In this document: positions 3,001 through 50,001 of the stretch, in pieces
Layout: each line of letters opens with the position of its first letter
How positions within the stretch are numbered: the stretch's first letter is position 1
Assembly: GCA_000934665.2 (NCBI GenBank)
Contig: JYFJ02002837.1
Span: forward strand, 1-50,001
DNA length: 50,001 nucleotides
Origin: Catajapyx aquilonaris
Lineage: Eukaryota
Reading direction: 5' to 3'
Program-made: the position numbers and the translations under genes
Notes under the pieces: model-generated
Told to the model about the DNA's origin: nothing
The model's database searches: none
The model's input: only the letters and a program-made list of their open reading frames with translations

Positions 3001-3197
3001 CTGGTAAAAGGAGCAGGTAATGGAGCTCCATTGGGATCAAATTCGTCCATGGCTGTTCTTTCTCTTTTCGAAAACTAATACCTTCCGGTCCTCCCAGATA
3101 GAAAGACAGTTTAGTAAGTGTATCTTGGCCTCGTTTTCTTCTTTCTGCTGGGATAGTCTTTTGGGGATTATAGGAAGGGGGGGGGGGGGAAGTTTAC

Positions 3198-3416
3198 CTC
3201 GAAAGTGACGGCGTCCTCTGACACCGAGGTCCTTCGTCTAAGTTCGGTCAAAAGGGCGCCGAATTCGTCCTTCAGAACTTGGAGGCGTTGACGTAACTCT
3301 GCCGCTTGTTGCTGGTTACTTTCGTCTTCTTCGTCGTCCTCTCCAACAGCCAGTTGGTCCAGACGCTGGCTCAGCTTCTGAAGCTCTTCTTGCACATAGT
3401 AGAGCTTCAAGTGAAG
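3198..3416 (-). CDS. WS/DGAT coiled-coil exon (73 codons)
   Basis: cttcAG|CTT ... GAG|GTAAAC, phase 0. Encodes LHLKLYYVQEELQKLSQRLDQLAVGEDDEEDESNQQQAAELRQRLQVLKDEFGALLTELRRRTSVSEDAVTFE, with heptad-like spacing. Confidence 0.7.
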
Positions 3417-6400
3417 CTGAAGTTGGGAATGGAGGGATTGGATTGTCATTTATAAGTTGGATGATGCGGGTTGTTGCCCGCATATGTACTTAATGTAAGT
3501 AATTAAGTCACTCTGGGAGATAGATGGTGCTATAAAGGTGGATATCGGGACTTGGAGAAAGTTTATGTCCTTACTTGCATCTAATTTGGGGGAAAGCAGA
3601 TGAGCAGATGACAGGAGAAGAATCTAATAGTCTTATTGAGCACTGAGAAATGTATCACGTAACTGCAGTAGCTGTACTTAAAAATTCCATTTATATGCCT
3701 ACTGTACTGTACGTATTAGACTGCACGAGCGCATTCAATTCCAGTCGGTTCTCATAACCTCATTAATATGGCATTGCACACAGAAAATTCACAAAGCTGC
3801 TCAAATTTCTGTAATAGTTTACTTATTCAAAAACCGCTAAGAAAGTCGTTGGAAGTTCACAAAATGTCGACCTGCATAAAAGTAATGTGTGCGCACCTAT
3901 ACAGTATACTAAAAAGTGGGACCCGTTATTAAATTTCGAGGCATGGTTACATCAAAATGCAAAGAGACCTGAGTTTGCACTGTTTTCGAACAATATAAAC
4001 GTCAGAAGACAAAAGCCGGTGTTAAAATACCGTGAAAACGTCGTCGGTTATGGAGATGCGCCAAAAGTGAGTCGTAAGGTGTGCGGTTTCCGTGTTAAAT
4101 TTTTGATATTTCAGCTGCACGCAAGGTGAAAACTTTGCGGTCGTTACTCCAAGAGCGAAACGAGTTGATTACCTTCCTAAAAGAGTATTAATTTCTTTGC
4201 CCATACTTCCATGCTCCAACAAGATCAAGCAAACTTTTTTTGTATGCCTTCTAGCTACAGTGTACCCTTCTGGGAATTTTCGCTCGCAGAATATTCGGAC
4301 CAGCCTCAAATACAAGGTGGTCCACAATTACATGTTGCTACTAGGACTTTCCATGTAAATGAATTTAATTATTAATTTATTTTTATTTAATTTATCAAAT
4401 TGGGTTTCTTGACAATGGTAAATGAAACGGACAACAATCGATGGCATTGTTGTCCTATTAGAGTCGCACCATGTCATATCGGGTTTGTCAGCCTCATTTC
4501 CCACTGCCCATTTAGAAAAAAAGTCTACTCAAATCACGCTCGCGTGTTTAAACTGGACACTTAGGTTCTGCACCACCCTGTGAAAATTTTTAGCGGCAAG
4601 TTCTTCTGACTCTCTGCTTTTCGAATTTTCAACTCAAACGCTGCTAGCAATGTGCAGGATGGATAAGTGAAGTTTGGATGTTCATTATTCGACTTGGTGC
4701 ACTCAATCATGATATTGGATTAGGTTTCTCCACGCATGAATGCTTGACCACTGGTCCATGCAGGATCGGCCGGAGGGGGTGGTGGGGATGGGGGTGCTGG
4801 GAGGGAACCGGACGAAGGAAACAAGATTTTGCGACACTGAAATTACAACTGATTTAATTGCTGCCACGTCCTGAGTCGGTTCTAGTGCTAGATTGGTTCA
4901 CATGCATGGTAACAGAAGCGGGGATCGATATCTCTATGTATTATTTCGGGCAATTACGGCCAGTGGTATACGGGAACTGTTTTTTTCTCTCTTTCTAATA
5001 AGCCACTTCCAAATTATGCAGCCCAACAGTGACCAGCACGTACTCATCGATCCTTTCAATACAAACAGTATACTTCCTGTGTGGGAAGTCAATTATGGGT
5101 TTTGATATTGATTAATTCCTGCATTTTTTGGGGTATCATGACCTCGGTAATTTTGGAACATGTCTATAGTGTCGAAATTGATATACCGACGGCTCTGATT
5201 TTTCCATGCCATACATGACGAATGTTCCGAAATTCCATTAACTGCTGCTTACAAAAAAAAATCGTTCAGTTATATACTATACCGTAACTTACTCTGGAAG
5301 CGATTTCTCTAACGAACAAGGTGAGCTGCAGCTGCTGAGTAAACTCCGAGAAATCACGCAATATTTCAGAAACTAATAAACGGAAGTTTCGGTCCCGAAG
5401 AGAAACTGGGCACGGAAAATCCGGGTCTCTAATGTATATATGAGCAAAAGATGACCGTCTGTCCAAACCGGGCCAATTTCGGAAGATATTAAGTAGGGCC
5501 AAGGGTGACATACTGCAAAAATTGTGGGTCCCAGCTACCGGGGAACTGCAATTCGTCAAAGGTACCGGGGTTGACAACCGGATTAAATCGTACTGTATAA
5601 CCAGGCATTGCTGTGCTGGGATGCGGAAATTTATTCGCGAAAAGGAATCGGCCGGTTCCCTGGACGCATCGATTTCAGCTCGTACAATAAGGAAAGTGCA
5701 CATATTTCATACGGGGGGTTCAAAAATGGCCTGCATATTTTTTTACCTTCCTTGGCATATTATACAAGGAGGATATGAAAAAAAGAATACAAATAACACC
5801 TTACAGGTTGGCGTGAAAGCCACTTCGATATTACTTTGGACCTCTTTCCTCAAATAGGCTTTTCCTGTTCGCGTAGAGTGGGTAGAAACACTAGGGTAAA
5901 GTGCCCTATTTTTGTGCCGTGGCCATAACTCGATTTATCTGCTCAGATCTCTCTGTTGGGCCAGGCTGAAAGGCTGAGATCTAAAGGAAACGCGACACAT
6001 GTCAAAACCAGGCTGTCACCGTGGACCACGTAATCTCTGCTACAGTAATAATTAAAATTTAAGCTTCTTTCGCAAAAAAAAGTAGACTAGTAACCAAATT
6101 AAGTGAAGTGTGAGTCTAGCTGAATGAAGTGCAAAGTTATTGAAATTGTTCCGCTACTTGCTAACTTCGTGGAGGTGACCGAAAACTGTTAGAAAATACG
6201 TAGTTCAGAAGGTGGAATTCATTATACAGTAGGACTAAGTCAGTCTCAGCTCTTTGAAGAAAGGTACCAGCTTTGTAGAGTGTGAAATATTTATTACGCA
6301 AGAGGGATTGAATTTCTAGCGGGGGGCAAAGTAATGCAAATTCTCCAGAAAATTGACTTGTAAAGCACACCCTTGTTATGCTTACAGTTAGTCTAGGATA

Positions 6401-20000: not shown

Positions 20001-23000
20001 TAGAGGGAAACCAGTCATAAAATCGGCTGTACAATTTGCTCCAACCTCCAACCCATGTGAGCATCTCCAATATATTTTCCTCAATCCCTATCCCTGCAGA
20101 CACTAATAAATAGTGACAATCTCGTACAATCCAAAATCACCCATGCATTTATGCAATCGCCTCCGATTAATAAATGATTTCGAATCACTCTGACCAGGTC
20201 AAGTTAATTTTTTCTCGGAAATTCAATATCTGGCAAGATGTGCTGTTTTTAGCCCATATTGTTGGTATACGTCCAGTTATTAACTCCAAATCAACTTATG
20301 GGTGTGTGAAATGTTTTACAAGTAAATATTTTATGGCCTGAATTAGTAATAATAATAAACCAAAGCATAATATGCAGGAAAGGCCGCCACAGATCCGAGA
20401 GCTTTATTATTATTATCCTAAAGTAATTACGCATACTTTCACTACGTTCTTCTTGAGTAGTGGGCATTGAACTTTATTTTAATGATAAGCACCAGTCATC
20501 TTGCATCATGTTTAGGACGATGCGCTGTGAGAATATCGCAGTTTTTACTGGCGGACTCTTCATAATAATGGTGCCCTGAGGTGCGGAAAAAATTCAACCT
20601 TAGATGGAGTCGCCAATTATTCTCCCAGATCAATTTGCATAAGCGCAAAGTCATCAGGGATTAAGGGATTTTAAGAGCAGAAGAGATCGAGGGAAATCTA
20701 AATGTCCGTAAATTAAATTTTAACAGAAGGCTACTGTTTCCAGTGGGACGCCAAAAGCTCCTGGGGCCGCACGTGCTCTGGAGAAGGCCAGAAAAATCCT
20801 ATTTTTGTAGTGTATAGCCGGCATAGAAACATCGGAAGAAATCGCTTCCTTGATAGAATAGAGTAGATAGAGTTATGTATATGTTTAAATGGCCAATATT
20901 CAATTCGAAAAATTATGCAACCTCTACCATTGCAATAAAAATTTAATTAAAACTCTGAAAGATTCCTATAGCGCCTTCTCTTGCCATATTTCGTACATTA
21001 TAATGGTAAATTATCAACATTCAAGCCCAGGTATTCACTAATCAAATTACAAACATTTGAAAGCTGAGATGAAAAGATATACTAATATTGTTAGGAACAA
21101 TTTCCAGTAGAAGTGATCGTGTCTCATAACAAAAATCAATCAAGGAAGAGATCAATTATCTTCATTCTTTGGCATTATAGGTACAGTTGGACGAACCTTG
21201 TAAATTGTGCTTATGTTATCGTCACTGAATTGCAGGATATAATTTTTAATGAAATTTAATTGGCACCATCCGATGAAGCTCGGTACTTTTCGTGGCGCCT
21301 AATGTTTGGCCCACTTGCTTACTTTCGTAATGTTACGCACTGGATAAATTATACAGCACTCTGGTATTGTATACGAAGACATACTAAGGTGACGAGAAAT
21401 CAGCCCATGCCATTAATAATTTTTAGTGGCTTTTTGTTTGTTGTCATATTGCAAATTGTTCTCACGCTTTATTCCCTACATGAAAATTTGTCAATTTGGC
21501 ACCACTACATTAATATTTCGAAAAGTATGATTTGTTGCGAACTCAAATAATCCGGTGGATTATATTATTGACAGGCAGTGTGAATGGTACGAGCCGCAAG
21601 CCACAAATCCTCCCCACCATTGTTTTTCCCAACAACACGCGCATCAGTTACAGATTTTCATAATAAAGAAGATTTGATAGCGCTCATTATTTATCAGAGC
21701 CCATGTTTAGAACTACTTGAAATATGACCAAACTAGTGGACAAAAATGGGAGGCCCGATGTGTCATTGCCCTTTTCACGCACGCCCAAAAAAAATCGCTA
21801 AATCCAGCTCTGAATATTGCCTACCAAAAGGTCGAGTGCCGTTTTATAAGCCCCTTATGGCCATATGGAGTGGAATGGCGGGGCTAGACTCCGTTTGGGA
21901 TGTTTCAGCAATTTTGTGGCCCTTTTGGCAAGCTGGTGAGAAGGGATATGGAGGTTCCTACAATTTACGTAATATTACAACCAGCAGTTAAATTGAGCGA
22001 ATAGAACCAAATAAGGTGCCCAAGAATAAATCCCAAAATGCTTTACGAAAGTGCTAGCTTACCTTTGATTCCTTCAGTACAACTTCTGTACCAGCATCGC
22101 ACTGTTAATCACCAGCTTACCCTATACCTAGCAAAAAAATGCATAACTACAGTGCTTTTACACTATAAGGCAATCTAGTGATTAACAGCTTGATGTGGTA
22201 AGCCACCAATAGAAGAGACATATAAACGTGACGCACAACAGACATGGAGGGAATCACACGCACATCCACACACACCTTAGCGATACGCCTACGCGCACAC
22301 ACCTGCTGGTCCGCCAGAGAGTGGCACAGAATCCGCACTAGTGACATCCCGTCCGCCAAGCACTGGTGCACTCTCAGCACTACCACAGTGTCCCGATTTG
22401 GACCATAATTGTGAAGGACCCGCACTTCCCAAAGGGGCTTGCAGGTGGAGAGAGGCTCGGTCAGGAGGTCACCAACGTAGGCCTGCAGCTGGGCCTCGTC
22501 TCTCAGGTTGGGACCCAGTATCACGTGGTCACTTATGTTGAAAGCCAGGTATGGCTCCCAGCGGAAGGCGGATCGGGTCGACACAACCCGGTGGGTGAAA
22601 CGCGGGTAAAGTTTGCTTCCGCTGGGTCCCTCCGCCTGCACCACTCTGGAGAGCAACAGTTGACGGAATTGCGCAATGTCCATACCACCTTCGAACAGTA
22701 GCACAGCATGCATCACTGACGCCAACTCCTGAAATCAGAGACACATTGAGGAATTCACATTGTACCAACTGAAATATCTGCACTAGTGACGGATATGTAC
22801 ATTAAAGCAGCGAGTGTTATCAATAATTTAAACTCTGAAACGTGATCACATGTGCTATGAATAATTGAGGGAACATCACAGAAAATTTATGCAACAGTTA
22901 TGATGTGATGGCCAATTTTTTTATATCGCTTCGACACTTTTTGAACCCGTAAATTCCCACCGGATCAGCGTGTCAGCAGACACATATTGGTTCTGATAAC

Positions 23001-38500: not shown

Positions 38501-40890
38501 TCAACCCCATCACGTGGTTCGTGCTCATTCTTTAATTGTTTCGCACATCTCGAAAGTCCCATTGCACTTTTTTTTTAAACTAAAAATGCCAAACTTGTTA
38601 ACTCACTGCCAACAATGCATTTTAATCCTCCACCATCGTTGAACCAACAAGAAAATGTGTACTCACCCATGATCCTCATAGTATGAGGTGGTCTGCCTCT
38701 GGGGCCGGTCCTCGCGCCACTGAAACCGACCAAAACTCCAGCTCCTCCCTTCCTTTTCCACCCCCCCATCAACCCAACGCCCCCCACACCACCCCCCCCC
38801 CAACCAAAAAGCGCCCCCCGTGCATTCAGGTGGAGAGACTAGAGCTAGCTGCTGGGGGCTGCACAACCCGCTTGGAAGTGGCGCCTCCACAGCGCCACAT
38901 CGATCCCCCCACCATATCCTACAAAAACCCTCTCCAATATTTTTTCAATCCAAAATTACACACTGTAGCATTTTTTCTAGGTGTATAACAATGTCTTATT
39001 GTTACCTGCGTATACAAGAAGTGATGCAAGGTTTTTGCGTGATTCGATGTGATTAAATGTGGGTGTAAAATAGAATGGGGGCGAGGTTGAAACTTTGCGT
39101 GAGGGATATCTACCCAAAATGAGGGTAGGGTAGGGGGGGGGAGGCCTTTTGTATTGGGGAAGCTTTAGATGGGCCATTAGCATCGGTATGGGGTGGTCAA
39201 TCTATTCGCGATTTTATTATAGACTCATTAGACTAACAATAGGCAAAAAAAGCAGACTCGCTAAAACCACACAATGACATGCTGTGTCATTACCATTGGT
39301 CGGATTAAAGTATGCCGTAGTGGACATGCTATTTTTTGGACGTATCGGTGTGTAATTATTGAATAATTAGTTGCTGTTAGAGATTTCCACACATTTCGGT
39401 AGTAAATTTACATACTGAAGTTATTTTTAAAAAACCATTTGAATTATCAGCAATGTTAGGTTATGGAAAATTATTCATGCTGACACTGACTTTCAATGGA
39501 TTGTAAAGAAATGTTTTCAGTAACTTAGTAGCAGTTTGCGTATATTTACTAAAAGTAGGTCTAAAGTTAGTTACTGCTGAAAAATAGTCTGAAAAAAGCC
39601 TCTAACTAAAACGCACTGCATGGAAAAATCACAGTGGAGGCCTACTGTGAATGTGTACACGAGTTTAAAATTTTACAATATTTGTTGAACAGTGTCAATA
39701 TCATTCAGAAAGTATTGCACGATCGATAATTTTTTTGTGCTTCTCCATATTTTGTTCAAAAGCAAAAATCTTCTTTGCAAAGGGCCCTGTACTGCGAGAA
39801 GATGATGGATGTCAATTAGGTTGATATGCACCTAAACAGCCACCGTCAACTGAGCAGGTTATGAATAGTTGATGGGTGTAAACTGCATTTCACCCTAATT
39901 GGCATGTACCCTTTTTGCAAAAAAAAGATTGCAACAGTGCAGCTTTCAGATCGCAAGTGCTCCATGCCCGGATATTATTTATGGACGTACGTATACATCA
40001 ATGACCGCTTCCGACCCTTCAGTTTATCAGACATCATAATGCTCACAACATACACTGATGATGCCAAAAAGTTGAAACATTAGACAAAGGGAAATAGTAA
40101 CGCCCACCCTGCAGTATTTTGCAGCACGCTGACTACAATTTGCATTAACAGTGGGAACCAAATTAAAAAGTTTGCAAGTGAAATGGATCCTCTTCACCAC
40201 TTTCCTTCTGGGTGTTCCTAAAACAACCACACTTCTCCCATTGGGTATTCACAACATTTTATAGTTTTAAAACATCCGCATGAGTGCCTCTGTGTGCCAA
40301 CATCCTATAGTGGTCAGCTTCATTCGTCGCGCTCTCTGAACCCAAAGCTCAGTCTTTTCCACAGCACAATCCCACAAAACTATTTCACTTTAGTATTTCA
40401 AGTGCAATTCGCTACCTCGTGAAATTAGGCTTGAATGTTTGTGGAAGTTGGGTTAAACTCTCTGCAGGGTTGGATCACACCTCAGTGCTCTCGGAATATC
40501 CTCCAGTGTCACACAACATGTGGAGGTTTTCCTTGTGTCCAATGGAGTGCTGCTATGGTATTGGCAAGGCGACCATCATCAGAGACATGGTGAGAGTTGA
40601 CGCACCTGGGGAAAAGGCGGGCACGTCGTATTCCAGGATAATTTTACGCTACCAAGTTTCCAGATTATGCATTAGAGAATAATTTCCCGCGGGATGATGC
40701 TGACTGCCAACTTGGCCACGACGCAAAGCGTATGAGCTTAATCATCATTTGGCTGCTGCCCTATATGACTCCGTGCCTTAATTCAAGCACTCCAAATTAT
40801 ACTGATGTCTCTTGCTGCTGTTTTGTGTAAAGTATTTATGTCACTTTGTAAAAACTCGGAATATGCAGACATTGCCGTGATGATATTTAC

Positions 40891-41270
40891 CACAATGTTC
40901 ATCAGCACGAAAATCAATTTTGCGGTACTGTTGGCCAAGAGCAACGTGCGTTCGGTGAGAACCAGATGCGCTCTCTCATGTAGACGCCTATTGGCCCTGG
41001 CCTTTTCCCAGTCGGAATCTCTCTTTTGCTTATAAGCGACCCAAAACTTCTCGTGCATCTTCACAGTCTTTTCGTTCAAGCCTTCTGCTCCAGAGGAGAG
41101 ACATAAACTGTAGTCATTGGACTGTATGGACGGTGAAATCCTAATCAGCAGTCCTAGTAATCCTAAGTCCTAATAGCGTGTTGATAAGCATGTTGTAAGA
41201 CAAGATGTCTCACTTTAACTTGGTTCAGGAGATCTCTGACTTCCTTCATCGGAGTCCAGTAGTTGCCAGT
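40891..41270 (-). pseudogene. Unknown-family paralogue A, internally deleted (exon-1-like segment directly next to exon-5-like segment)
   Basis: ~41270-41214 encodes TGNYWTPMKEVRDLLNQVK (B exon 1: TGEYWNMLKEASEILGNVR). After only 44 nt, 41169-40891 encodes LLIRISPSIQSNDYS...HEKFWVAYKQKRDSDWEKARAN...LMNIV. The upstream ATGs are out of frame. 40991-41056 is colinear and highly similar to 42541-42606. Confidence 0.6.
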
Positions 41271-42287
41271 ATACCGCCCTGGTGTATTTCCATCATCTCG
41301 TCAAAACTGTTACAACAGGTGTAAAGCAAAGTCGCCGATGGAACAACAACAGTTCCGACCGACCCTCACCCGAATATAGCCGACAGTGACAGTGAACGTG
41401 AAGGGAGAAGCTGGTAAATAAACAATTGCAGCCAAAATAAAAAGCAATGGGTCAACTGGGTTGCAGTGTATGTTGTGTAGCACATATTCTTTCACATTCA
41501 TCTGTAGAGGTCCAACTGATGCTATTTATATGCACTGGCGATTTGATAGGTAGCCTACACATTCTGGTGTCTGCTTACAGAATAGCCGGCTACTGTAAAT
41601 ACACTGCAGTTTATTTTGGTCCCTTCTGATGGGCAGCTATATAGGACACCTACAGTCTGACAGTGCGGAGTGTTTCCATCTGATTGAAGAACTTGTTATA
41701 CAGCGTGCGTGGAAATACAAGCGAAGCACTCACGAGAGAGAGGAAAATTACGTCGGGTGAGAATTACAAGGTTGTAACTACACAGGATTTTCATTGCAGT
41801 TACAACCATGTAATTCTCACCCGACGATTAGTTAATTATTTTTTGAAGGTGGTCACAGTTCTCTTCACCACATGACTGGTTGAATATATAACCTTCCTTT
41901 ATATCACGGCAGAGGAGTGTTAAAACACATCTTGCCCATCATGCTTATACTACTCCAATATACTGCTGAATAATAATTGTGAGTACAATACCACCGTTTA
42001 ATTGGAAGACTAACTCGTAAGAGAATGGATTCATATCACCAGCAGTGCATGTTTTCATAATATTGTTTCAAATACTTTTAGACGGTATTAATTGTACAGT
42101 ATTAATTTTTAAAGCACGCTACAAAATACGTTCGAGCTTATTTTAAACCAAGCCATTCACTGAGTGGTAACGGAGACCGAACGTAAAGAAAGTCTTCTCC
42201 TGACATAAAATGATAAGAGCAAATAAACAACATATGAGTGGTAAAAATAGCTGTAATTCGTATTAGGTTTCATTATTGTATGACTCT

Positions 42288-44304
42288 TCATTGAACTACC
42301 ATGTCGTCGTCCTTCTCTACACGCCTCTTCTTGGCCGGATTGGAGCAAACTGCCTTAGGCATTATCTGCTTCTGTGGGATGGAGACAATTTAGACACCAA
42401 TCAGTGTGAGAAACGTAACAATTCCTGTCGTGACACTCACCACAATGTCCATCAGCGAATCAATCACAGTTTTTATGTCTTCAGTCATGAGCAGGGAGTT
42501 TTCCACGTGAATCAAGTGCATTTTCTTTAGCTCCTCTCGGTTGGCCCTGGCCCTTTCCCAGTCGGTCTCTCGCCTTTCCCTGTAATAGCTCCAAAACTTC
42601 TCGTGCGAATTCCAAGTCTCTTCAGAAATTTCAGTCTTCAGAATGTCGGTTCCAACGGAGTAGTAGGCTTCACTGTAGTCTTTGGTCAGCATGGACCAAG
42701 AAATCAGAACCAACACGTCCGCATTATGTGGAGCGTTCAGCAGCTTCTCTTCGTAGATCTGTAGATACCCATCCTGAAAATGTTTGCAATCAACGTTTGA
42801 TTCGTGGACATGAACACAATTTTCAAGCAGGAGACTGTACAGTGTGTATTGTGTACCGGGTCGTAATATTTCTCCATATCCTCTCTGCAGGATGATAAAG
42901 CCAGGCGAGTGATCATCAAGTCGAACTCCAATAGAAATCGCTGTCGGAGCTCCTCGTTTTTCACCTCCTTCGCGCAGAGGTGTGCTGCCATGCACATGTC
43001 GTCGCCGAATAAAAAGTCCATTTCCTGTGTGACACCAATGCCGTTTAAATACTTGAATTTACACTCAATTGACGTGTCAGTACCTCAAGGAAATCCTGGC
43101 TCTCCTTCTCCCATGCGAAAAGCAATTCCCACTGCTGAGCGAGACCTGTCCGTACTCCTTCCATATATTTGGGATACAAAACGTCTCTGTAATGAGCGTG
43201 TTGATCGATGACATCCTGAGGCACCTTTTCAAAAAAAATATGTCAGTATGAATTTGAAAATCTTCACTTGTTTCATTGTGTGTGAGCGGTGAGAAATCTT
43301 TTGGTATATTTTGTCCTTTAATAATAATAATAATAATAATAATTCATACCCCGTTATCAGCCTATCGGCTCTTTAGGGGGGAAGTTTTTGTTTTGGCTGG
43401 AACTCTTTGCTTTCATTTTACTACGCTTTTTGGGATAGGATAGGGACGGAAGGAAGCGGCTGTGGCCTATTAATTACGGAAGCAACTCCGGAATTTTCCT
43501 GGAAGGACCGTGGGAAACCACAGAAAACCACGGTCAGAGTTGCCGGCACCGGGATTTGATCCCAGGACCTCCCGATTAGCAGTCGGACGCCTTATCCACT
43601 ATGCCAACCGGCTTCGGTGTATTTTGTCCTTTAATTGCACGCCAGGAGTTGATTGTTGATTTTATTTGATTGTTCCAACTGGTTCCTATAATTATGATGG
43701 TAGACCTGGAAACAGCTAGCCAATAGATTGCCAACAATCAACTAACAATCAACTAAAATCAACAATCGACTACTGGCGTGCAGTTGACGGAATAGTACAA
43801 TTTTTTTATAGTACTGATGATGAAAAGTGGAATTCAGGCGAAATAATTACTGATTAGATAAATTAACAAAATTGAGGTCAATCTCGAAGCATGTCAGCTA
43901 ATGAGCCAAGCAAACACACAGTACATAATTCATTCGATCCCAACACTCCGATACGCCCCATGTGAATGAAGTCTTACCTTTGCAAATGCTGACTCCGGAA
44001 TGTCTTCGTAGCTCGTATAGTGCAATTCCAAGCATTTCTCAATGCCGGTCAAAATTTCTCTTTGCTCGCGATAGACTGCCCTTATTGAGCGGTCATTATC
44101 TACGGTAATCATGAGCTCTAGTTCTTGGACTGTTACCTGGAGCTGCTGCAACCTCCCCTGCAATGATCAAAAGAATCTTATATTTACTCGTGCTTGCCCT
44201 TTCTGAAGCGCACTGGATAGATCACTTACACGAACGTTGCCCAGGATTTCGCTGGCTTCCTTCAGCATGTTCCAATACTCTCCAGTAGAAACTCGACGGT
44301 CCAT
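42288..44304 (-). CDS. Unknown-family paralogue B, 6 exons, ~326 aa, helical-looking, C-terminal NLS-like PAKKRRV
   Basis: Exons 44304-44230, 44157-43978, 43224-43084, 43024-42857, 42773-42441 and 42371-42288, all GT-AG phase 0 with no internal stops. Homologous to paralogue C exon by exon. Confidence 0.75.
43323..43619 (-). mobile_element. Full-length tRNA-derived SINE with (ATT)n tail and 16-bp target-site duplication
   Basis: Minus-strand head GCCGGTTGGCATAGTGGATAAGGCGTCCGACTGCTAATCGGGAGGTCCTGGGATCAAATCCCGGTGCCGGC has A- and B-box-like motifs. Tail at 43323-43343; TSD tattttgtcctttaat at 43307-43322 and 43620-43635. Lies in intron 2 of paralogue B. Confidence 0.88.
43636..43782. mobile_element. 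MITE-like element with 39-bp terminal inverted repeats
   Basis: 43636-43674 versus the reverse complement of 43744-43782: 3 mismatches in 39 nt. Confidence 0.65.
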
Positions 44305-45016
44305 TTCGAGCTCACAGAAACTGGTTTGATGCTCTGTAAAAAAAAAAATGCGTGTGGAACGTGATACGTTCCGTCCGACTCTCAACAGGCTAGAACTGAG
44401 ACTGACATGACAGTGAGTCTGTTGGTAAATAAACAAGGGAGCCAAATGTTATGCAGTCTTTGGTTGATATAGGCAACCGGGTTTACTGAAGAGAAAAATA
44501 TGCTCATAAGTTCCACATAAAAACGATCAGCTTACTAGAGCCCAGGAACCTGTTCATGCTGGCCATAGTATAGGTCAAAAATGATTATTATCAATGCAGC
44601 ACTTGCATTCCGAATTGTTTTTTAGTTACACTTACTGAATTTGTAATTACGTCGTATGTGACACAGCCTGCATACTTGCCTGTCTTTTGCTCATCTCCCA
44701 TGATGTTTCGCTGAGGTTTACGACAGTTTGTGTAATGCTAATAATTATCGAAAAGAGTTGCTCCAGATATTTTACCTGAAATTTTCCACCACCTCGAAGT
44801 CCTCCTGTTAGCTGAATACACAATCATGTAATTATTTGTTAGGATTGTACTAGCTTTTATTACGCATTTACAAAGCACTGCATTGCTTGTTGTAAACCAA
44901 GTCGTACAGGAGATATACCGGAGATAGCCGAATGCTATGTATAATGTAAAAAATGAAAGTAAACAAAAATGACGGCTCTACACATCGGAATACTCTGTGA
45001 CTCCTTCTTGAACGAT

Positions 45017-46829
45017 CTAGTCTTCGCCAGACATGTCGTGGTCCTCCACGTTCATCTTCTTTGCCGGAATTGGGCAGTCATCCTGCACATTCACACTCTT
45101 TTTTGGAATTGGACAGCAGTAGCTCTGCATATTACACAGCCTCTTTTCCGGAATTGGACAATCATCCGGCACGTGCATCCTCTTCCCCAGAATTGGGCCA
45201 TCGTCACTATGCACCACCGCCTTCATCTTCTGAGGTGAAAGAGTTACAGTCAGTAAACAACGAGACAACTGTGCACTATATCACATAGGGAGTAAAGTCG
45301 CATAATATTTACCGCAAGGCCATAGATGAAGTCCAGCTTTCTTCTCGCTGCCTTGGCCATTGATATGGTGTCTCTTATTCCAGCTATACTCTTGTCTACC
45401 ATCTTCCGCCTCATATCCCAGGCTTTGTTCCACGCAGAATCCCTCACTTCCTTGTACGAGTTCCACAACATCTCGTGCCATTTTGCAGTCCCTTCAGAAA
45501 AGTGCGGCTTCAGATAGCCACATTCAGAATCATAGACGATGCTGTAGTCGTGCTTCAGAAAGTGGGGGGAAATCGCCAGCAGGAGGGCATAAATGTGCAT
45601 GGCACTTCTCAGTTCCTCCTCCACGTGCTGCAGAAATTCGCGGAAAGAAAAAAAAATGGTATGAAAAGGGGAAACTCAGAATTTTATGCAACCCTCCCTC
45701 AGAAGGTTATGTCGCAGTTGTGTTATTCCAGACCTGTACATCGAAGTTCTGCTCCTTCCCGCGAAGTGATAGAAAGATGTGCCCGAATACTAATCGCAGT
45801 TCGATGAAAAAATTGGATCGCATTGGCTCATTTTCCATCTCTTCCCCAATCAAGTCATACACCGCCTGGCACATGTCATGGCTGAATTGATGGCTTATGT
45901 CCTATATGTGGGATTTAAAATATTGTTTACACACTACTTCTCAAACGTAATCCGTGGTTGATTATAAATGGCATTGAATATTGGTACAGTACAGCGAGAT
46001 TCATCTGGTGATCTGCCTTCATTCTAGCAGTGCGTTCCATCTCACCCAAGATGCACACAAATAAGTCAGTTAGGTCAGTATGCAGCGCGTGCATACTACA
46101 AAAACTCTCTGTCTGAAAAGTGGTTATAAAAATTATTATTAGTATTATTATTAGTATACTGCCAAAAAAAAACACCATGTGTTTACGTTGTGTATTCTGA
46201 GACAGGATATTGTGATGTCCTAATTTGATTGCAGAGTATGCATTGGGAGCACATAAGTCCTAAATAATTCTCAATTCAAAACGTTAATTTGAGTTAAATA
46301 CTTGTATGAAACATTATGAACATCAGGTGTAAGCAGTGCTGTTTAGGGAAAATAATAGGCAATCCATTTACTTTCACTTGTGCAACCAGACCTCAGGTAA
46401 TTGCATTCAAGCAAGCCTGTCAGTTTAACAACACTATTGACGATTGTTCTTCAAGTTGTTGAATAATAGTACTTCACAACTTTAAAAAAGTATTGGTATG
46501 ATCGTAAAACATACTTCTCCCCATGCTGATTGCGAGATGATTTGGAGGCTATCAATCTGCATAGTTAATGAATCCTTCAAGCGTGACAAAATCTGACTAT
46601 GCTCTTCAAGGATTTCCTGCACTTGTTGGTCTTTCTTGATGTCAATCAAGGTCCCCACTAGTTTAGCCTTCCTGACCAAGTCGGGCAGAATCACCTAAAA
46701 TGAACAAGCGCAATGTTTCTGCTTATATTTCAGGAGACATTCTGGACCATGACTTACAGGTAGACCGTCCAGGTGATTGTAAGCTTTCTTCAGCCGGTGC
46801 CAGGGTTCACCTGCGCCGTATTTGTCCAT
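45017..46829 (-). CDS. Unknown-family paralogue C, 6 exons, ~355 aa
   Basis: Exons 46829-46758, 46694-46515, 46112-45993 (donor least certain), 45901-45734, 45627-45313 and 45229-45017, all phase 0. Exons 2 and 4 are 180 and 168 nt, exactly as in B. FSHDMCQA aligns with FGDDMCMA, and HEMLW..Y...RDSAWNKA with HEKFW..Y...RETDWERA. Confidence 0.72.
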
Positions 46830-47615
46830 TCCCAGCATGTAAAAACTAATGACTGCCTGTGAGACAAAGTTTCGGATGGAAAGCAAAAAAGTTCAGTCCG
46901 TCTGAAACTCTCCAGCAGGCGACAGTGAAACGCGACGGTGTAACCATAGGAATCTATTGGTAAACAACTATAGCCAAAATCATCCTTTTCGAGTGCAAGA
47001 CCATATCCATGGTACGTACTTACCAAATGATTGAAGTGCACGAATGTCCTTCACCCCTCTTCACCAAGTACCTCAACAGCATTCTCTTGCAGTGAACAGT
47101 CACGACTCTCGAATTTCCAATCATGGCGGACATTCACTTCTGGGCTAAAATCCCGATGACTTACGAAAAGTGTTTTTTTTTTTTTAGTTCGACAAATTCA
47201 TACAAAGGTGGCCAGAAGCCTCCGCCATTGCCCTGGACCATTATTAGATCTTCAACACAGTGGAATATCAAAGAATTAAGCAACAACTTAGGCGTACCTC
47301 AGTAACAGGCTATACTTTCGCTGCCCCTTTATAGACACTGTGTAAAAAAAAATCGAAAAATTGTTGTCCCTTTCTACACTACTGCCACTCTTAGAGGGAA
47401 AGTAGTACTACATGCACGTTGGTGATGAGTCACCGCGCGGACGAAGCCCACCAGGGGGCTATAACCAGCACGTATCTCGCCTCCATTGAAGTGAGTCCCA
47501 CCCTCTCTGACCGCTATTATTATGTGCTCTAATTATTGAACGGGGAAAGTGAAACTGTAGGCCATGATCATTAGCACTTTGAGAATATATGACCAATGAG
47601 TGTGAGTCTTCACTT

Positions 47616-48959
47616 TTATTTCACCTTGTCGATTGTTGGAATGTTGTATGGTTTATATTGACGGTGTCGAGGCTGAGCTGCGACGTCATTCCTCTTGAGC
47701 AGACTTTTGGGCAGAGTGCTGGCCCTGCTGAACGTGTTGTCCAAACGGACGAAGACGTCTTCTCTTTGGTGCTGCATGGAGTGATGGACATGCACCCTCC
47801 ACTTCTTTTCACTCAACATCCTCCACTTCGTTTCACTCAACATCCTCTGATTGAACTCCTTCTCCTTCTCTATCTCGATGGTCGCCTCAAGTATATCCCT
47901 GTCCAGGAGCATCACCTCATTCCTCTTGCTCGTTACCTATACCCACGAAGAAGGTGAAAACAATTCAATTCACACGAACTGTCAAATGGATTTAAACTGC
48001 CTTTAATTCGACTGTTGTTCTCACCTGCATGCTCAGGGCGTTGATGGTGGCGTCGAGCTCCTTAGACCGTCGTTTTCTTTCCAGCTTCTGTGGGGTGCAC
48101 TCTTCTTCCTCCTCCTCCTCCTCCTCCTCCTTCTCCTCTTCCTCCTCTTCTTCTCCTGCTTCTTCTTCTTCTGAATCATTCTCGCGCTCGGTTTCCTGCA
48201 AGAGTAACTTCCTCTGTGCTTCGGCTTCCTCCAAGAGTAACTTCCTCTGTGCTTCGGCTTTAGTGAAGCCAATAGTACATGACATGCCTTTGACATTATA
48301 TTGCCAAGTGATATAACTTACCCAGAAGAAGCTCTTTGTTCTCCAGCTCTTTCTTCCGGATTTCCTTCGTGCGGTCGGCCTCGTAGGCATCAACCTTGAC
48401 CTTCAACTTCTTGAGGAATTCCTGTATGGCCCCTGGCTGTCCTTCGGCCAGACTAGTGATCATTCCCTCAGAGATACGGCAGTTGAACTTCCCCAGAACC
48501 TGCGAATTTTAAAGCTGCTGATGCCATGATTTTACACATTTGGTAATTTTGTGCTAAATGTGACATTTGGTACGCATCTTAGCTCGTGTCAAACTAAGAC
48601 ATATCTGCATCTCCCCATTTCAAAAGCGTCGAAGGCGACTCACATGTGTGTTGAGGAACCTCCAATTGGTCATCTTCCCTACGATGCTGTTCCTGCTATA
48701 ATAGTTGTTTAAATTCACGTATCTTGGGAAGATGGAGTGTATCAATTGGGAGACCAGGACTGTGGACAGAACATGACAGTGCTGAACAGACAGCTAAACA
48801 AAAGGCATTGTTGGACTCACCCGCGTCTGAAAATCTTGCCGAAAACTGCTTGGGAATGGTGCTGGACCGCTTGGTCCTTTTGTCGTATTCCTTCAGCCAA
48901 CGCTGAATGGGGCATTCAACATTATTGTGATCAATTTGGTTCGGTTTTACGGCATCCAT
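47616..48959 (-). CDS. SPEF1: SPEF1/CLAMP-like protein (N-terminal calponin-homology domain, acidic linker, C-terminal coiled coil), 5 exons, ~328 aa
   Basis: Exons 48959-48821, 48759-48644, 48499-48322, 48257-48025 and 47936-47616 (phases 1,0,1,0). Spliced RFSDAVLVSQLIHSIFPRYVNLNNYYSRNSIVGKMTNWRFLNTHVLGKFN...LAEGQPGAIQEFL matches the SPEF1 pattern as I recall it (DFSDGVLVAE..K.YFP..V..HNY...NS...K..NW..LN.KVL). Orthology is untested. Confidence 0.82.
48101..48172 (-). repeat. Coding GAG/GAA tract (poly-Glu) in the SPEF1-like gene
   Basis: Directly visible; translates as SEEEEAGEEEEEEEKEEEEEEEEE. Confidence 0.9.
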
Positions 48960-49385
48960 AGTTATAAAAGTAAAATATAATTATATGAGTCGCTTTCCTG
49001 AAGGAACTGCCCCTGTTCCGACAGATTACTCTGGCATTATTAGTTGGTTTCCACGGTGCCCTGTTGGGGACCTTGAAAGTGACACAATCATGCGTTGTTA
49101 AGTGGAATTGGATTCATTGCACACTCTAAAGAAAAATATCATGCACTGAATGTTTTACATGCTAATTGACGAATGAGCTATTTTTATCAGCCGGTTATTT
49201 TTATTCACATGCTACAATGTAGTACTCCCGGGAGTCTTGTAAACTGTCGTTCAAAGGAAGAATTGAGACCGAACGTGATTGTAAGTATCCGACGCGTTGC
49301 ATTACAAACAGCTGCTTAAAACAAGTTTTAAAAATATTGAATCGTGAATCAGGTCTCATTAATGCGTGACTCTTCGTTGAACGAC

Positions 49386-49532
49386 CTAGCCGGACATGTC
49401 GTCGTCCTTACGCATCCTCTTCTCCGGTATTGGACAGCAGTCCTGCATGGTCATCTTATTCTTCGCAGGTGTTGAGCAAACCACCAATGGCTGTACCATG
49501 TGAAGTTGAGGTAAGGCAGTTCTAACATCAGT
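49386..49532 (-). CDS. Terminal exon of a fourth paralogue D (remainder probably beyond the window end)
   Basis: ctcacAG| then TDVRTALPQLHMVQPLVVCSTPAKNKMTMQDCCPIPEKRMRKDDDMSG*. Matches the last exons of B (VCSNPAKKRRVEKDDDM) and C (CCPIP, CPIPEKR, DHDMSG). Confidence 0.65.
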   Translation of the reverse strand, partial: TDVRTALPQLHMVQPLVVCSTPAKNKMTMQDCCPIPEKRMRKDDDMSG

Positions 49533-49660: not shown

Positions 49661-49663
49661 NNN
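49661..49663. other. Assembly ambiguity (NNN) inside a poly-G run
   Basis: Directly visible. Confidence 0.99.
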
Positions 49664-50001
49664 GGGGGGGGGGGGGGGGGCTGGTAAGGAGGAACATACA
49701 CTGATCCGTGTTGTGGATTATCTGTGCATCGCCAAGAGGAAAAGTGAGAAATCGAAGTAGGAACGATGTACATATGTTTTGCAGAGAAAGAAATGATAGC
49801 ACACGGCAGGGGCGTAGCAAGAGGATTAGGCGGATTAGGCATCCCGGGCGACGGGGAATAGACGCACGCACCCCCATCATGAATGATGGAAGGCAAAGAA
49901 GCACCCCGCCGCAGGCGAAATTTTTTTGGGGTATAAGGTCACACAAACTTAGGTGAATGTTACAGTAAGTGTTACCAAGAGCTAATGGTGTTACCAATTA
50001 G

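Follow-up and report, generated by a model that had tools for sequence, protein, structure and literature searches.

A tandemly duplicated family of putative orphan genes in Catajapyx aquilonaris, predicted to encode soluble helical proteins with a C-terminal tail of variable length

Introduction

Since orphans are estimated to account for 10-30% of the genes in a genome (Wissler et al. 2013, PMC3590893), the assignment of a family to this category is unremarkable. Orphan gene families, as known from insects and other arthropods, have no detectable relatives, their origin and function are unexplained, and they include intact and decayed copies generated by local duplication. They constitute a general kind rather than a homologous family and the designation says nothing about function. 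Short sequence modules with known roles offer other points of comparison. Classical monopartite nuclear localization signals include those of the SV40 large-T and c-Myc types. Tail-anchored regulators such as the members of the Bcl-2 family and the SNAREs have a C-terminal transmembrane segment, and haem regulatory proteins, for example haem oxygenase-2, carry Cys-Pro motifs at the C-terminus outside the core (PMC2742820). Aliphatic residues are reported to precede about 87% of the haem-binding Cys-Pro motifs (PMC10377097).

Here we describe a locus within a 50,001-nucleotide window of the C. aquilonaris contig JYFJ02002837.1 that includes four copies, named A to D, of a protein-coding sequence. 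We consider it somewhat probable that they are a real, tandemly duplicated animal gene family coding for soluble helical proteins with a variable tail, with the functional roles suggested below included in that judgment.

Structure of the two complete genes

Copies B and C can be spliced in full into genes of six exons on the minus strand, coding for 326 and 355 amino acids respectively, with introns that, at the predicted junctions, are all GT-AG and in phase 0. The original prediction had proposed two complete six-exon genes with phase 0 introns and two exons of equal length, 180 and 168 nt, and all of this held: the frames are open, the sites canonical, and the equal exons are numbers 2 and 4. 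The exons are as follows.

44230..44304, minus strand: gene B exon 1, ATG at 44304, 25 aa, G-E-Y-W block, GT donor, phase 0
43978..44157, minus strand: gene B exon 2, 180 nt, 60 aa, AG/GT, phase 0
43084..43224, minus strand: gene B exon 3, 141 nt, 47 aa, AG/GT (GTACTG donor), phase 0
42857..43024, minus strand: gene B exon 4, 168 nt, 56 aa, blocks F..DMC.A and NE..R..F..E
42441..42773, minus strand: gene B exon 5, 333 nt, 111 aa, blocks IS......DYS and HE..W..Y...R...W..A
42288..42371, minus strand: gene B exon 6, 27 aa and stop, one C-x-x-P-A-K-K unit, basic stretch, D-D-D-M end
46758..46829, minus strand: gene C exon 1, ATG at 46829, 24 aa, G-E-P-W
46515..46694, minus strand: gene C exon 2, 180 nt
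45993..46112, minus strand: gene C exon 3, 120 nt, GTACTG donor like that of B, followed by an intron of 91 nt
45734..45901, minus strand: gene C exon 4, 168 nt
45313..45627, minus strand: gene C exon 5, 315 nt, 105 aa
45017..45229, minus strand: gene C exon 6, 70 aa and stop, about four diverged 13-14-aa units, ends D-H-D-M-S-G-E-D

A model of gene C with a 180-nt exon 3 ending at 45933, which would code for 375 amino acids, was dropped because the adjoining intron would be just 31 nt long. When B is aligned with C, each of the five introns falls at the same place in both, and intron 5 is 69-83 nt long. Intron 2 of B contains a tRNA-derived repeat that is present in this copy only.

The predicted B and C proteins are 25-26% identical. 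A blastp comparison aligned them over nearly their full length with an E value of 3.7e-23, and the Smith-Waterman score was 238 versus 37 ± 5.5 in 500 shuffles (maximum 68), which represents a z of 36. Taken together, the open frames, splice sites, intron positions and B-C similarity make the genes look real at the level of sequence. It is very improbable that the locus is non-functional, i.e. an array of decaying pseudogenes or chance open frames stitched together by eye. While A is clearly broken, D is a fragment, and the B-C omega of about 0.5 is a weak measure given that dS is saturated, the 326 and 355 codons of B and C are still open over six exons each at a dS of about 1.5, the splice sites are canonical with introns at identical positions, and the conserved blocks have survived 75% divergence.

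Organization of the locus

The two other copies are incomplete and were located as follows.

41214..41270, minus strand: exon-1-like piece of copy A, G-N-Y-W, GT donor at 41213, no in-frame ATG
40891..41169, minus strand: 3' part of copy A exon 5, open frame, 39% identical to B over 94 aa, GT donor at 40890
49386..49532, minus strand: last exon of copy D, 48 aa and stop, C-S-T-P-A-K, C-C-P-I-P-E-K-R, D-D-D-M-S-G

Copy A is a decayed remnant and not an intact gene, as had been anticipated in describing it as a deleted copy. It has no start codon, an ATG-ATG close to the exon-1-like piece being out of frame; exons 2 to 4 are absent; exon 5 retains its 3' three quarters; and exon 6 was looked for and not found. 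Copy D is seen as a last exon, as described originally, and lies next to an assembly gap. The beginning of its 3' UTR is 82% identical to that of B over 39 nt, and exon-5-like sequence was not found in the 469 bases upstream, which include the NNN gap at 49661-49663. A search with B using tblastn revealed no extra copies in the remaining 40 kb of the window. The locus had been interpreted as a tandem array of at least four paralogs; the four copies are indeed there, but they are not contiguous, as an unrelated gene coding for a CH_2-domain (SPEF1-like) protein on the minus strand (approximately 48959-47616) lies between C and D.

DNA repeats between copies are found almost entirely in exons 5 and 6 and the 3' UTR, a distribution that speaks for real genes. 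The exceptions outside exons are an A-B repeat extending for about 20 bases into intron 5, and a weak 30-nt pair in intron 2 of B. A base count showed that the A-B similarity over these first 20 bases of intron 5 is approximately that expected from the A-B dS. When calculated by the NG86 method for the same exon, omega was 0.83 for A versus B and 0.45 for B versus C. The presence of a decayed A, with its higher omega, beside intact copies fits the birth-and-death evolution that had been suggested for the family, in which growth would occur by local duplication and copies would be lost by deletion.

Divergence and conserved blocks

Over B and C, pS (0.65) exceeds pN (0.49), in favor of real genes, and omega is about 0.5, with a dS of about 1.5 or more, which is saturated and makes dN/dS uninformative as a test of the fast evolution suggested originally. 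The 75% divergence between both proteins may reflect age rather than speed. The original description of conserved blocks separated by strongly divergent sequence was accurate: all the blocks named are present, and the positions around the invariant columns vary freely. The blocks G-E-x-W, D-M-C, N-E..R..F..E, D-Y-S and H-E..W..Y...R...W..A are rich in polar and aromatic residues. The invariant columns are D, M, C, E, N, E, R and E in exon 4, and D, Y, S, H, E, W, Y, R, W and R in exon 5. The many invariant polar residues are compatible with an enzyme as well.

It could be proposed that the polar blocks form the active or binding site of a core that would be either an all-alpha enzyme or a small-molecule or metal-binding protein, as the invariant columns of exons 4 and 5 are mostly polar or aromatic and the residues around them are free to vary, at 26% identity overall. 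Plain helical bundles, with their buried networks of salt bridges and aromatic residues, give such a pattern of conservation too, and no match was found in Pfam or PDB using single-exon queries. We know of no catalytic motif of the known all-alpha enzyme classes in the family, and we regard the enzyme or ligand-binding explanation as improbable.

Searches for internal repeats in the proteins (24 cross-exon pairs) gave a best z of 4.1, from a single unreciprocated pair, and internal repetition was rejected.

Searches for related proteins

The queries in all homology searches were single exon peptides of 40-111 amino acids rather than the spliced proteins; a known fold may therefore have been missed, and a distant link could exist. 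With such queries no Pfam family reached the threshold for the 10 exact exon peptides or the ORFs carrying them, and below the threshold, at E values of up to 10, no family recurred between B and C exons. The Bcl-2 family and SNARE models were not listed for any exon peptide at E up to 10. A profile search of 1.84 billion protein representatives, mostly microbial, in which the E-value bar corresponds to about 40 bits, gave no credible matches with single exons. One match at E 6.6e-5, to a 1,737-amino acid repeat protein aligned in seven stretches on an H-x-x-L-W repeat, was judged spurious. Three word-indexed searches, one of them including 5.8 billion clusters, produced no matches to the single-exon queries. 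Profile searches of the PDB sequences with single exons gave nothing below an E value of 0.049 and nothing consistent. In the ESM Atlas, exon 5 of B had no usable match and exon 5 of C matched unnamed clusters only, with recognition below the mark.

These results agree with the original prediction, in which no domain had been recognized and the family was considered lineage-restricted: no relative was found with single-exon queries in Pfam, the PDB sequences or any of the libraries searched. A confident match to a characterized family or a transposon protein, which would have contradicted that view, was looked for with single exons and none was found. The family fits the category of orphans and would, as judged from sequence, be one of many such tandem families in animal genomes.

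Tandem, fast-diverging and unrecognizable ORFs can be derived from mobile elements, and the tRNA-derived repeat of B could be taken as a further trace of an origin in a transposon, an endogenous virus or a bacterial transfer. Against this, a set of 2.9 million viral contigs yielded 74 pattern matches that included no relatives by tblastn, metagenome contigs, prokaryote genomes and the protein collections, which are mostly microbial, yielded no relatives, and no transposase, integrase or capsid family was matched in Pfam. Furthermore, the genes are interrupted by five short spliceosomal introns whose positions are conserved, and the tRNA-like element is intronic and confined to B. An origin of this type is extremely improbable.

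Predicted properties of the core

The B and C proteins have molecular masses of 38-41 kDa and are acidic, with pI values of 4.88 (B) and 5.98 (C). Both spliced proteins lack a signal peptide and a hydrophobic leader at the N-terminus, and nothing resembling a membrane segment was found in them, the top 19-residue Kyte-Doolittle means being 1.03 (B) and 1.19 (C). In this they differ from tail-anchored regulators, whose C-terminal transmembrane segment they lack. AlphaFold2 modeled exon 4 of B as a helical hairpin (helices at residues 2-19 and 24-54) with a pLDDT of 81.8. In the model of B exon 5 a long helix occupies residues 51-110 (pLDDT 70-83), while residues 1-42 are below 50. The hydrophobic periodicity of this long helix peaks at 3.6, not 3.5, residues. 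As the beginning of exon 5 has such a low pLDDT and a crude Chou-Fasman count gave only 41-50% helix, the models cover helicity for about 110 of the 326 residues, and describing the protein as all-helical goes further than they do. An N-terminal W-x-x-L was considered as a possible LC3-interaction motif and set aside, as it is more likely part of the first amphipathic helix.

A Foldseek search with the exon-4 hairpin gave 21 rows, none at E ≤ 0.001; the best E values were 3 or higher and corresponded to MIT-type hairpins and similar structures. A very diverged member of a known helical family, such as a lipid- or ligand-binding bundle or a death-fold-like, Bcl-2-like or SNARE-type protein, might nevertheless have been missed by single-exon queries. 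The queries were short, only two short pieces were folded, and the bar of about 40 bits is to be compared with the 48.5 bits that B and C themselves give on exon 5. This is a serious explanation, albeit an unlikely one: B and C exons share no sub-threshold Pfam family, the PDB profile searches gave nothing consistent, the hairpin retrieved no significant structure, and the spliced proteins lack a C-terminal membrane anchor.

Returning to the preferred reading, that of a real orphan family of soluble helical proteins, we tentatively suggest that the core of about 300 residues would be an intracellular helical bundle, in which the conserved polar blocks might serve to bind a partner or a small ligand.

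The C-terminal tail

The last exon codes for a tail made of units of 13-14 residues with the pattern Cys-(Pro/Ser)-x-Pro-x-Lys-Lys/Arg, of which B has one, D two and C about four. The tails of B, C and D all close with D-x-D-M, and in their alignment C, K and D.DM are invariant. A repeat search identified diverged 44-nt and 77-nt repeats inside exon 6 of C, and a single copy in D; the repeats of the tail were not detected by Tandem Repeats Finder. The tail could be an exposed short-motif module setting localization or regulation, a suggestion made with low confidence.

The B tail contains P-A-K-K-R-R-V-E-K followed by acidic residues and resembles a classical basic signal for nuclear import; by this resemblance it may tentatively be taken as one, as it appears to share with the SV40 large-T and c-Myc types four consecutive basic residues preceded by a proline. 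The tails of C and D differ in that no unit has more than two basic residues side by side, and a short motif of this kind can arise by chance. A nuclear-import-like stretch is clear in B only.

Cys-Pro dipeptides number three in C, where three of the about four units carry C-P-I-P, one in D, and none in B, which has C-S-N-P. By their resemblance to known motifs, the Cys-Pro residues of C and D could conceivably bind metal or haem, or be redox-sensitive. The predicted C-terminal location of these motifs outside the core is shared with haem regulatory proteins such as haem oxygenase-2. On the other hand, B has no Cys-Pro, the core has no homology to those proteins, and the residues preceding Cys-Pro are D-D, Y-C and D-D in C and D-C in D, i.e. 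Asp, Cys or Tyr in place of the aliphatic residues reported in PMC10377097.

Read-through of intron 5 would generate a hydrophobic end, with 19-residue maxima of 2.05 (B), 2.03 (A) and 1.42 (C). The whole-peptide means for this read-through are 1.99 (B) and 1.26 (C), and those of the other nine introns go from -0.50 to 2.73. A tail-anchor isoform produced by intron-5 retention was rejected, as the hydrophobicity lies within the range of the other introns. A more elaborate proposal combines a new all-alpha fold of one arthropod lineage, a ligand-binding polar pocket, a haem-, metal- or redox-sensitive switch in the tail that would control localization or stability, and retention of the 69-83-nt intron 5 to yield a membrane anchor that toggles the protein between soluble or nuclear and tail-anchored forms. 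We find this combination distinctly improbable. Our best guess for the function is that the protein would serve inside the cell as a helical adaptor whose tail is regulatory.

Significance of the family

The locus had been put forward as a candidate for an undescribed system. This idea did not stand, as nothing links the genes functionally to one another or to their neighbors, or the family to a larger system or an open question. If expressed, the genes would represent an additional protein family without a name, recognizable by a clear conserved signature and a modular, length-variable tail, and the family would be a reasonable target for structure prediction and localization work. A new fold or a regulatory tail motif, if true, would be of modest general interest.

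Gene organization of copies B and C

The ORF map between 39.5 and 50 kb includes coding-like fragments on the minus strand. Genes B and C, two of four copies (A to D) of one paralogous protein family, were spliced by reading the sequence and with a coordinate-based script.

Gene B, minus strand: 44304-44230, 44157-43978, 43224-43084, 43024-42857, 42773-42441, 42371-42288; six exons, 326 aa
Gene C, minus strand: 46829-46758, 46694-46515, 46112-45993, 45901-45734, 45627-45313, 45229-45017; six exons, 355 aa

All introns are GT-AG and phase 0, and exons 2 and 4 have 180 and 168 nt, respectively, in both genes. These models agree with the original prediction of two complete 6-exon genes coding for 326 and 355 aa. 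A later donor for exon 3 of C, which would generate a 375 aa protein, was rejected as it leaves an intron of only 31 nt; the donor GTACTG at 45992, identical to that of B exon 3, yields the 355 aa product. The introns range from 59 to 106 nt with the exception of intron 2 (B, 753 nt; C, 402 nt). Intron 2 of B includes a tRNA-like sequence (43541-43612, minus strand; ARAGORN Ser (gct), Rfam tRNA 41.9 bits). Its continuation into a longer sequence without tRNA character suggests the head of a tRNA-derived SINE. This tRNA-like insertion makes up part of the B intron and is absent from C.

Incomplete copies and layout of the array

The features accompanying B and C are as follows.

41270-41214, minus strand: copy A, exon-1-like piece with its own donor
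41169-40891, minus strand: copy A, 3' three quarters of exon 5, 44 nt beyond the exon-1-like piece
About 48959-47616, minus strand, as the array: gene with a Pfam CH_2 domain, between C and D
49532-49386, minus strand: copy D, last exon, with a good acceptor

Copy A has an in-frame acceptor at 41169 and lacks exons 2 to 4 and an in-frame ATG (an ATG-ATG just upstream is in a different frame); a search for its exon 6 found none. It is a deleted copy, as had been proposed, and it lends support to the birth-and-death evolution suggested for the family. D was likewise correctly described by its last exon. No exon-5-like frame was found within the 469 bases upstream of this exon, which include a poly-C run and an NNN gap (49661-49663). 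The gap, 130 bases upstream of the exon, adjoins a 17-base homopolymer run (49664-49680). D may continue past the gap, in which case the assembly, not the genome, may lack the remainder; alternatively, D may be a remnant.

The predicted array of paralogous copies is not uninterrupted, since the CH_2 gene separates C from D. CH_2 is a CH-like domain of the sperm flagellar protein type; one exon matches it (31.5 bits against a cut-off of 27, E 1.8e-7), and the exon after that extends the profile (positions 62-95, E 0.0011). This multi-exon gene is unrelated to the array; two of its exons share the domain, and the Glu-rich coiled-coil part that comes after it carries tandem repeats of 33 and 24 nt.

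Relatedness and evolution of the copies

A tblastn comparison of spliced B with the whole window detected exon 5 of A (E 4.7e-14), exons 5 and 4 of C (E 6.9e-9 and 0.002) and weak matches to the short exons, with no credible match in the first 40 kb. Residues 4-325 of B matched residues 3-311 of C by blastp (E 3.7e-23, 25% identity), and the Smith-Waterman score was 238 versus 37 +/- 5.5 (maximum 68) in 500 shuffles; judged on sequence, the likeness is beyond chance. In the global alignment 82 of the 311 aligned positions are identical and all five exon borders coincide. Every conserved block originally listed, including the terminal D.DM, is present. DNA repeats between copies correspond to exon 5, where three copies share them at 66-78%, to exon 6, and to 39 nt (82%) at the stop/3' UTR of B and D. 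Outside these regions, one A-B repeat runs about 20 bases into intron 5, and B intron 2 contains a weak 30-nt pair.

Between B and C, dN is 0.79 and dS about 1.5; as dS is saturated, omega, about 0.5, can serve only as a rough guide. Two observations argue for constraint: pS is higher than pN, and the long open frames are kept at such divergence. The divergence itself may reflect either fast evolution, as originally suggested, or simply the age of the family. A is nearest to B (exon-5 dS 0.61), and the exon-5 omega of 0.83 for A-B versus 0.45 for B-C suggests that constraint was relaxed in A.

Properties of the putative proteins

B (38.7 kDa, pI 4.88) and C (40.9 kDa, pI 5.98) have no hydrophobic leader or membrane-like stretch, the top 19-residue hydropathy being 1.03 and 1.19, respectively. 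A crude Chou-Fasman count gave a helix content of 41-50%, and no internal repeat was found. Fold models covered the contiguous single-exon translations of exons 4 and 5. Exon 4 (B and C as an alignment) was modeled as a helical hairpin (pLDDT 81.8), with the D-M-C block on the first helix and the second helix opening with N-E..R..F..E. The exon 5 model (pLDDT 61.9 overall) has one helix at residues 51-110 (pLDDT 70-83), preceded by residues 1-42 with pLDDT below 50. The hydrophobic periodicity of this helix is strongest at 3.6 residues, not at 3.5, which weakly suggests packing in a bundle instead of a canonical coiled coil.

Exon 6 codes for a C-terminal tail with C-x-x-P-x-K-K units; B has one, D has two, and C has about four, of which three read C-P-I-P. 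The C and K of the tail do not vary, nor does its D.DM end. Classical nuclear-import signals have a basic run after a proline, and the B tail shares with them a four-residue basic run in that position. The C and D tails have Cys-Pro dipeptides like those of haem regulatory motifs, which are absent from B. According to a passage in PMC10377097, aliphatic residues precede Cys in about 87% of haem-binding CP motifs, while those in the C and D tails are acidic, Cys or Tyr. Because of both differences we do not claim membership in this class.

Reading through intron 5 in frame beyond the exon-5 donor was also considered.

42372-42440, minus strand: read-through in B
45230-45312, minus strand: read-through in C
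Below 40891, minus strand: read-through in A

In B and A the frame codes for a hydrophobic stretch that ends at a stop codon; this is less clear in C. The length of B intron 5 (69 nt) is divisible by three, and the resulting ending has a hydropathy of 2.05. However, read-throughs of other introns reach equal hydrophobicity and intron 5 falls within their range, so that a B form with this ending remains speculation; the hydrophobic stretch is probably due to chance.

Search for relatives

Every query was a single exon of up to 111 aa. No Pfam family reached threshold for the ORFs, nor for ten exact exon peptides (E up to 10). An exon-5 profile (A, B and C) compared with 1.84 billion representatives gave one match (E 6.6e-5), a 1737-aa repeat protein aligned through seven stretches on a recurring H-x-x-L-W, which was taken as spurious. 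In word-indexed searches of 5.8 billion clusters, B exon 5 had no match among longer proteins at E <= 0.01, and the profile had none at E <= 10 among proteins that were longer or of near length. PDB sequence profiles gave nothing below E 0.049 for exons 5, 4 and 2, none of the 21 Foldseek rows for the exon-4 hairpin had E <= 0.001, and the ESM Atlas had no usable match. Scanning of contigs by pattern plus tblastn (viral, prokaryote, and two rounds on metagenomes) found no relatives. The absence of a recognizable domain noted originally thus holds for the libraries searched with single-exon queries.

Other open frames in the window

Two further frames were noted.

22147-22734, minus strand: 195-aa frame that matches the catalytic domain of wax ester synthase / diacylglycerol acyltransferase (PF03007, 38.7 bits, E 1.3e-9), a family known mainly from bacteria and plants
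3168-3449, minus strand: 93-aa frame, heptad-like and Glu/Gln-rich, with no Pfam match at E <= 0.01; possibly an exon of a gene for a coiled-coil protein

Nature of the family

Copies A to D are a real, previously unnamed family. Our best guess, held with low confidence, is that its product is an intracellular helical bundle, in which the conserved polar and aromatic blocks would bind a partner or ligand and the tail would carry short regulatory motifs. According to the abstract of PMC3590893, orphans account for 10-30% of a genome's genes, so the family can be considered an ordinary example of a common kind, the orphan genes.
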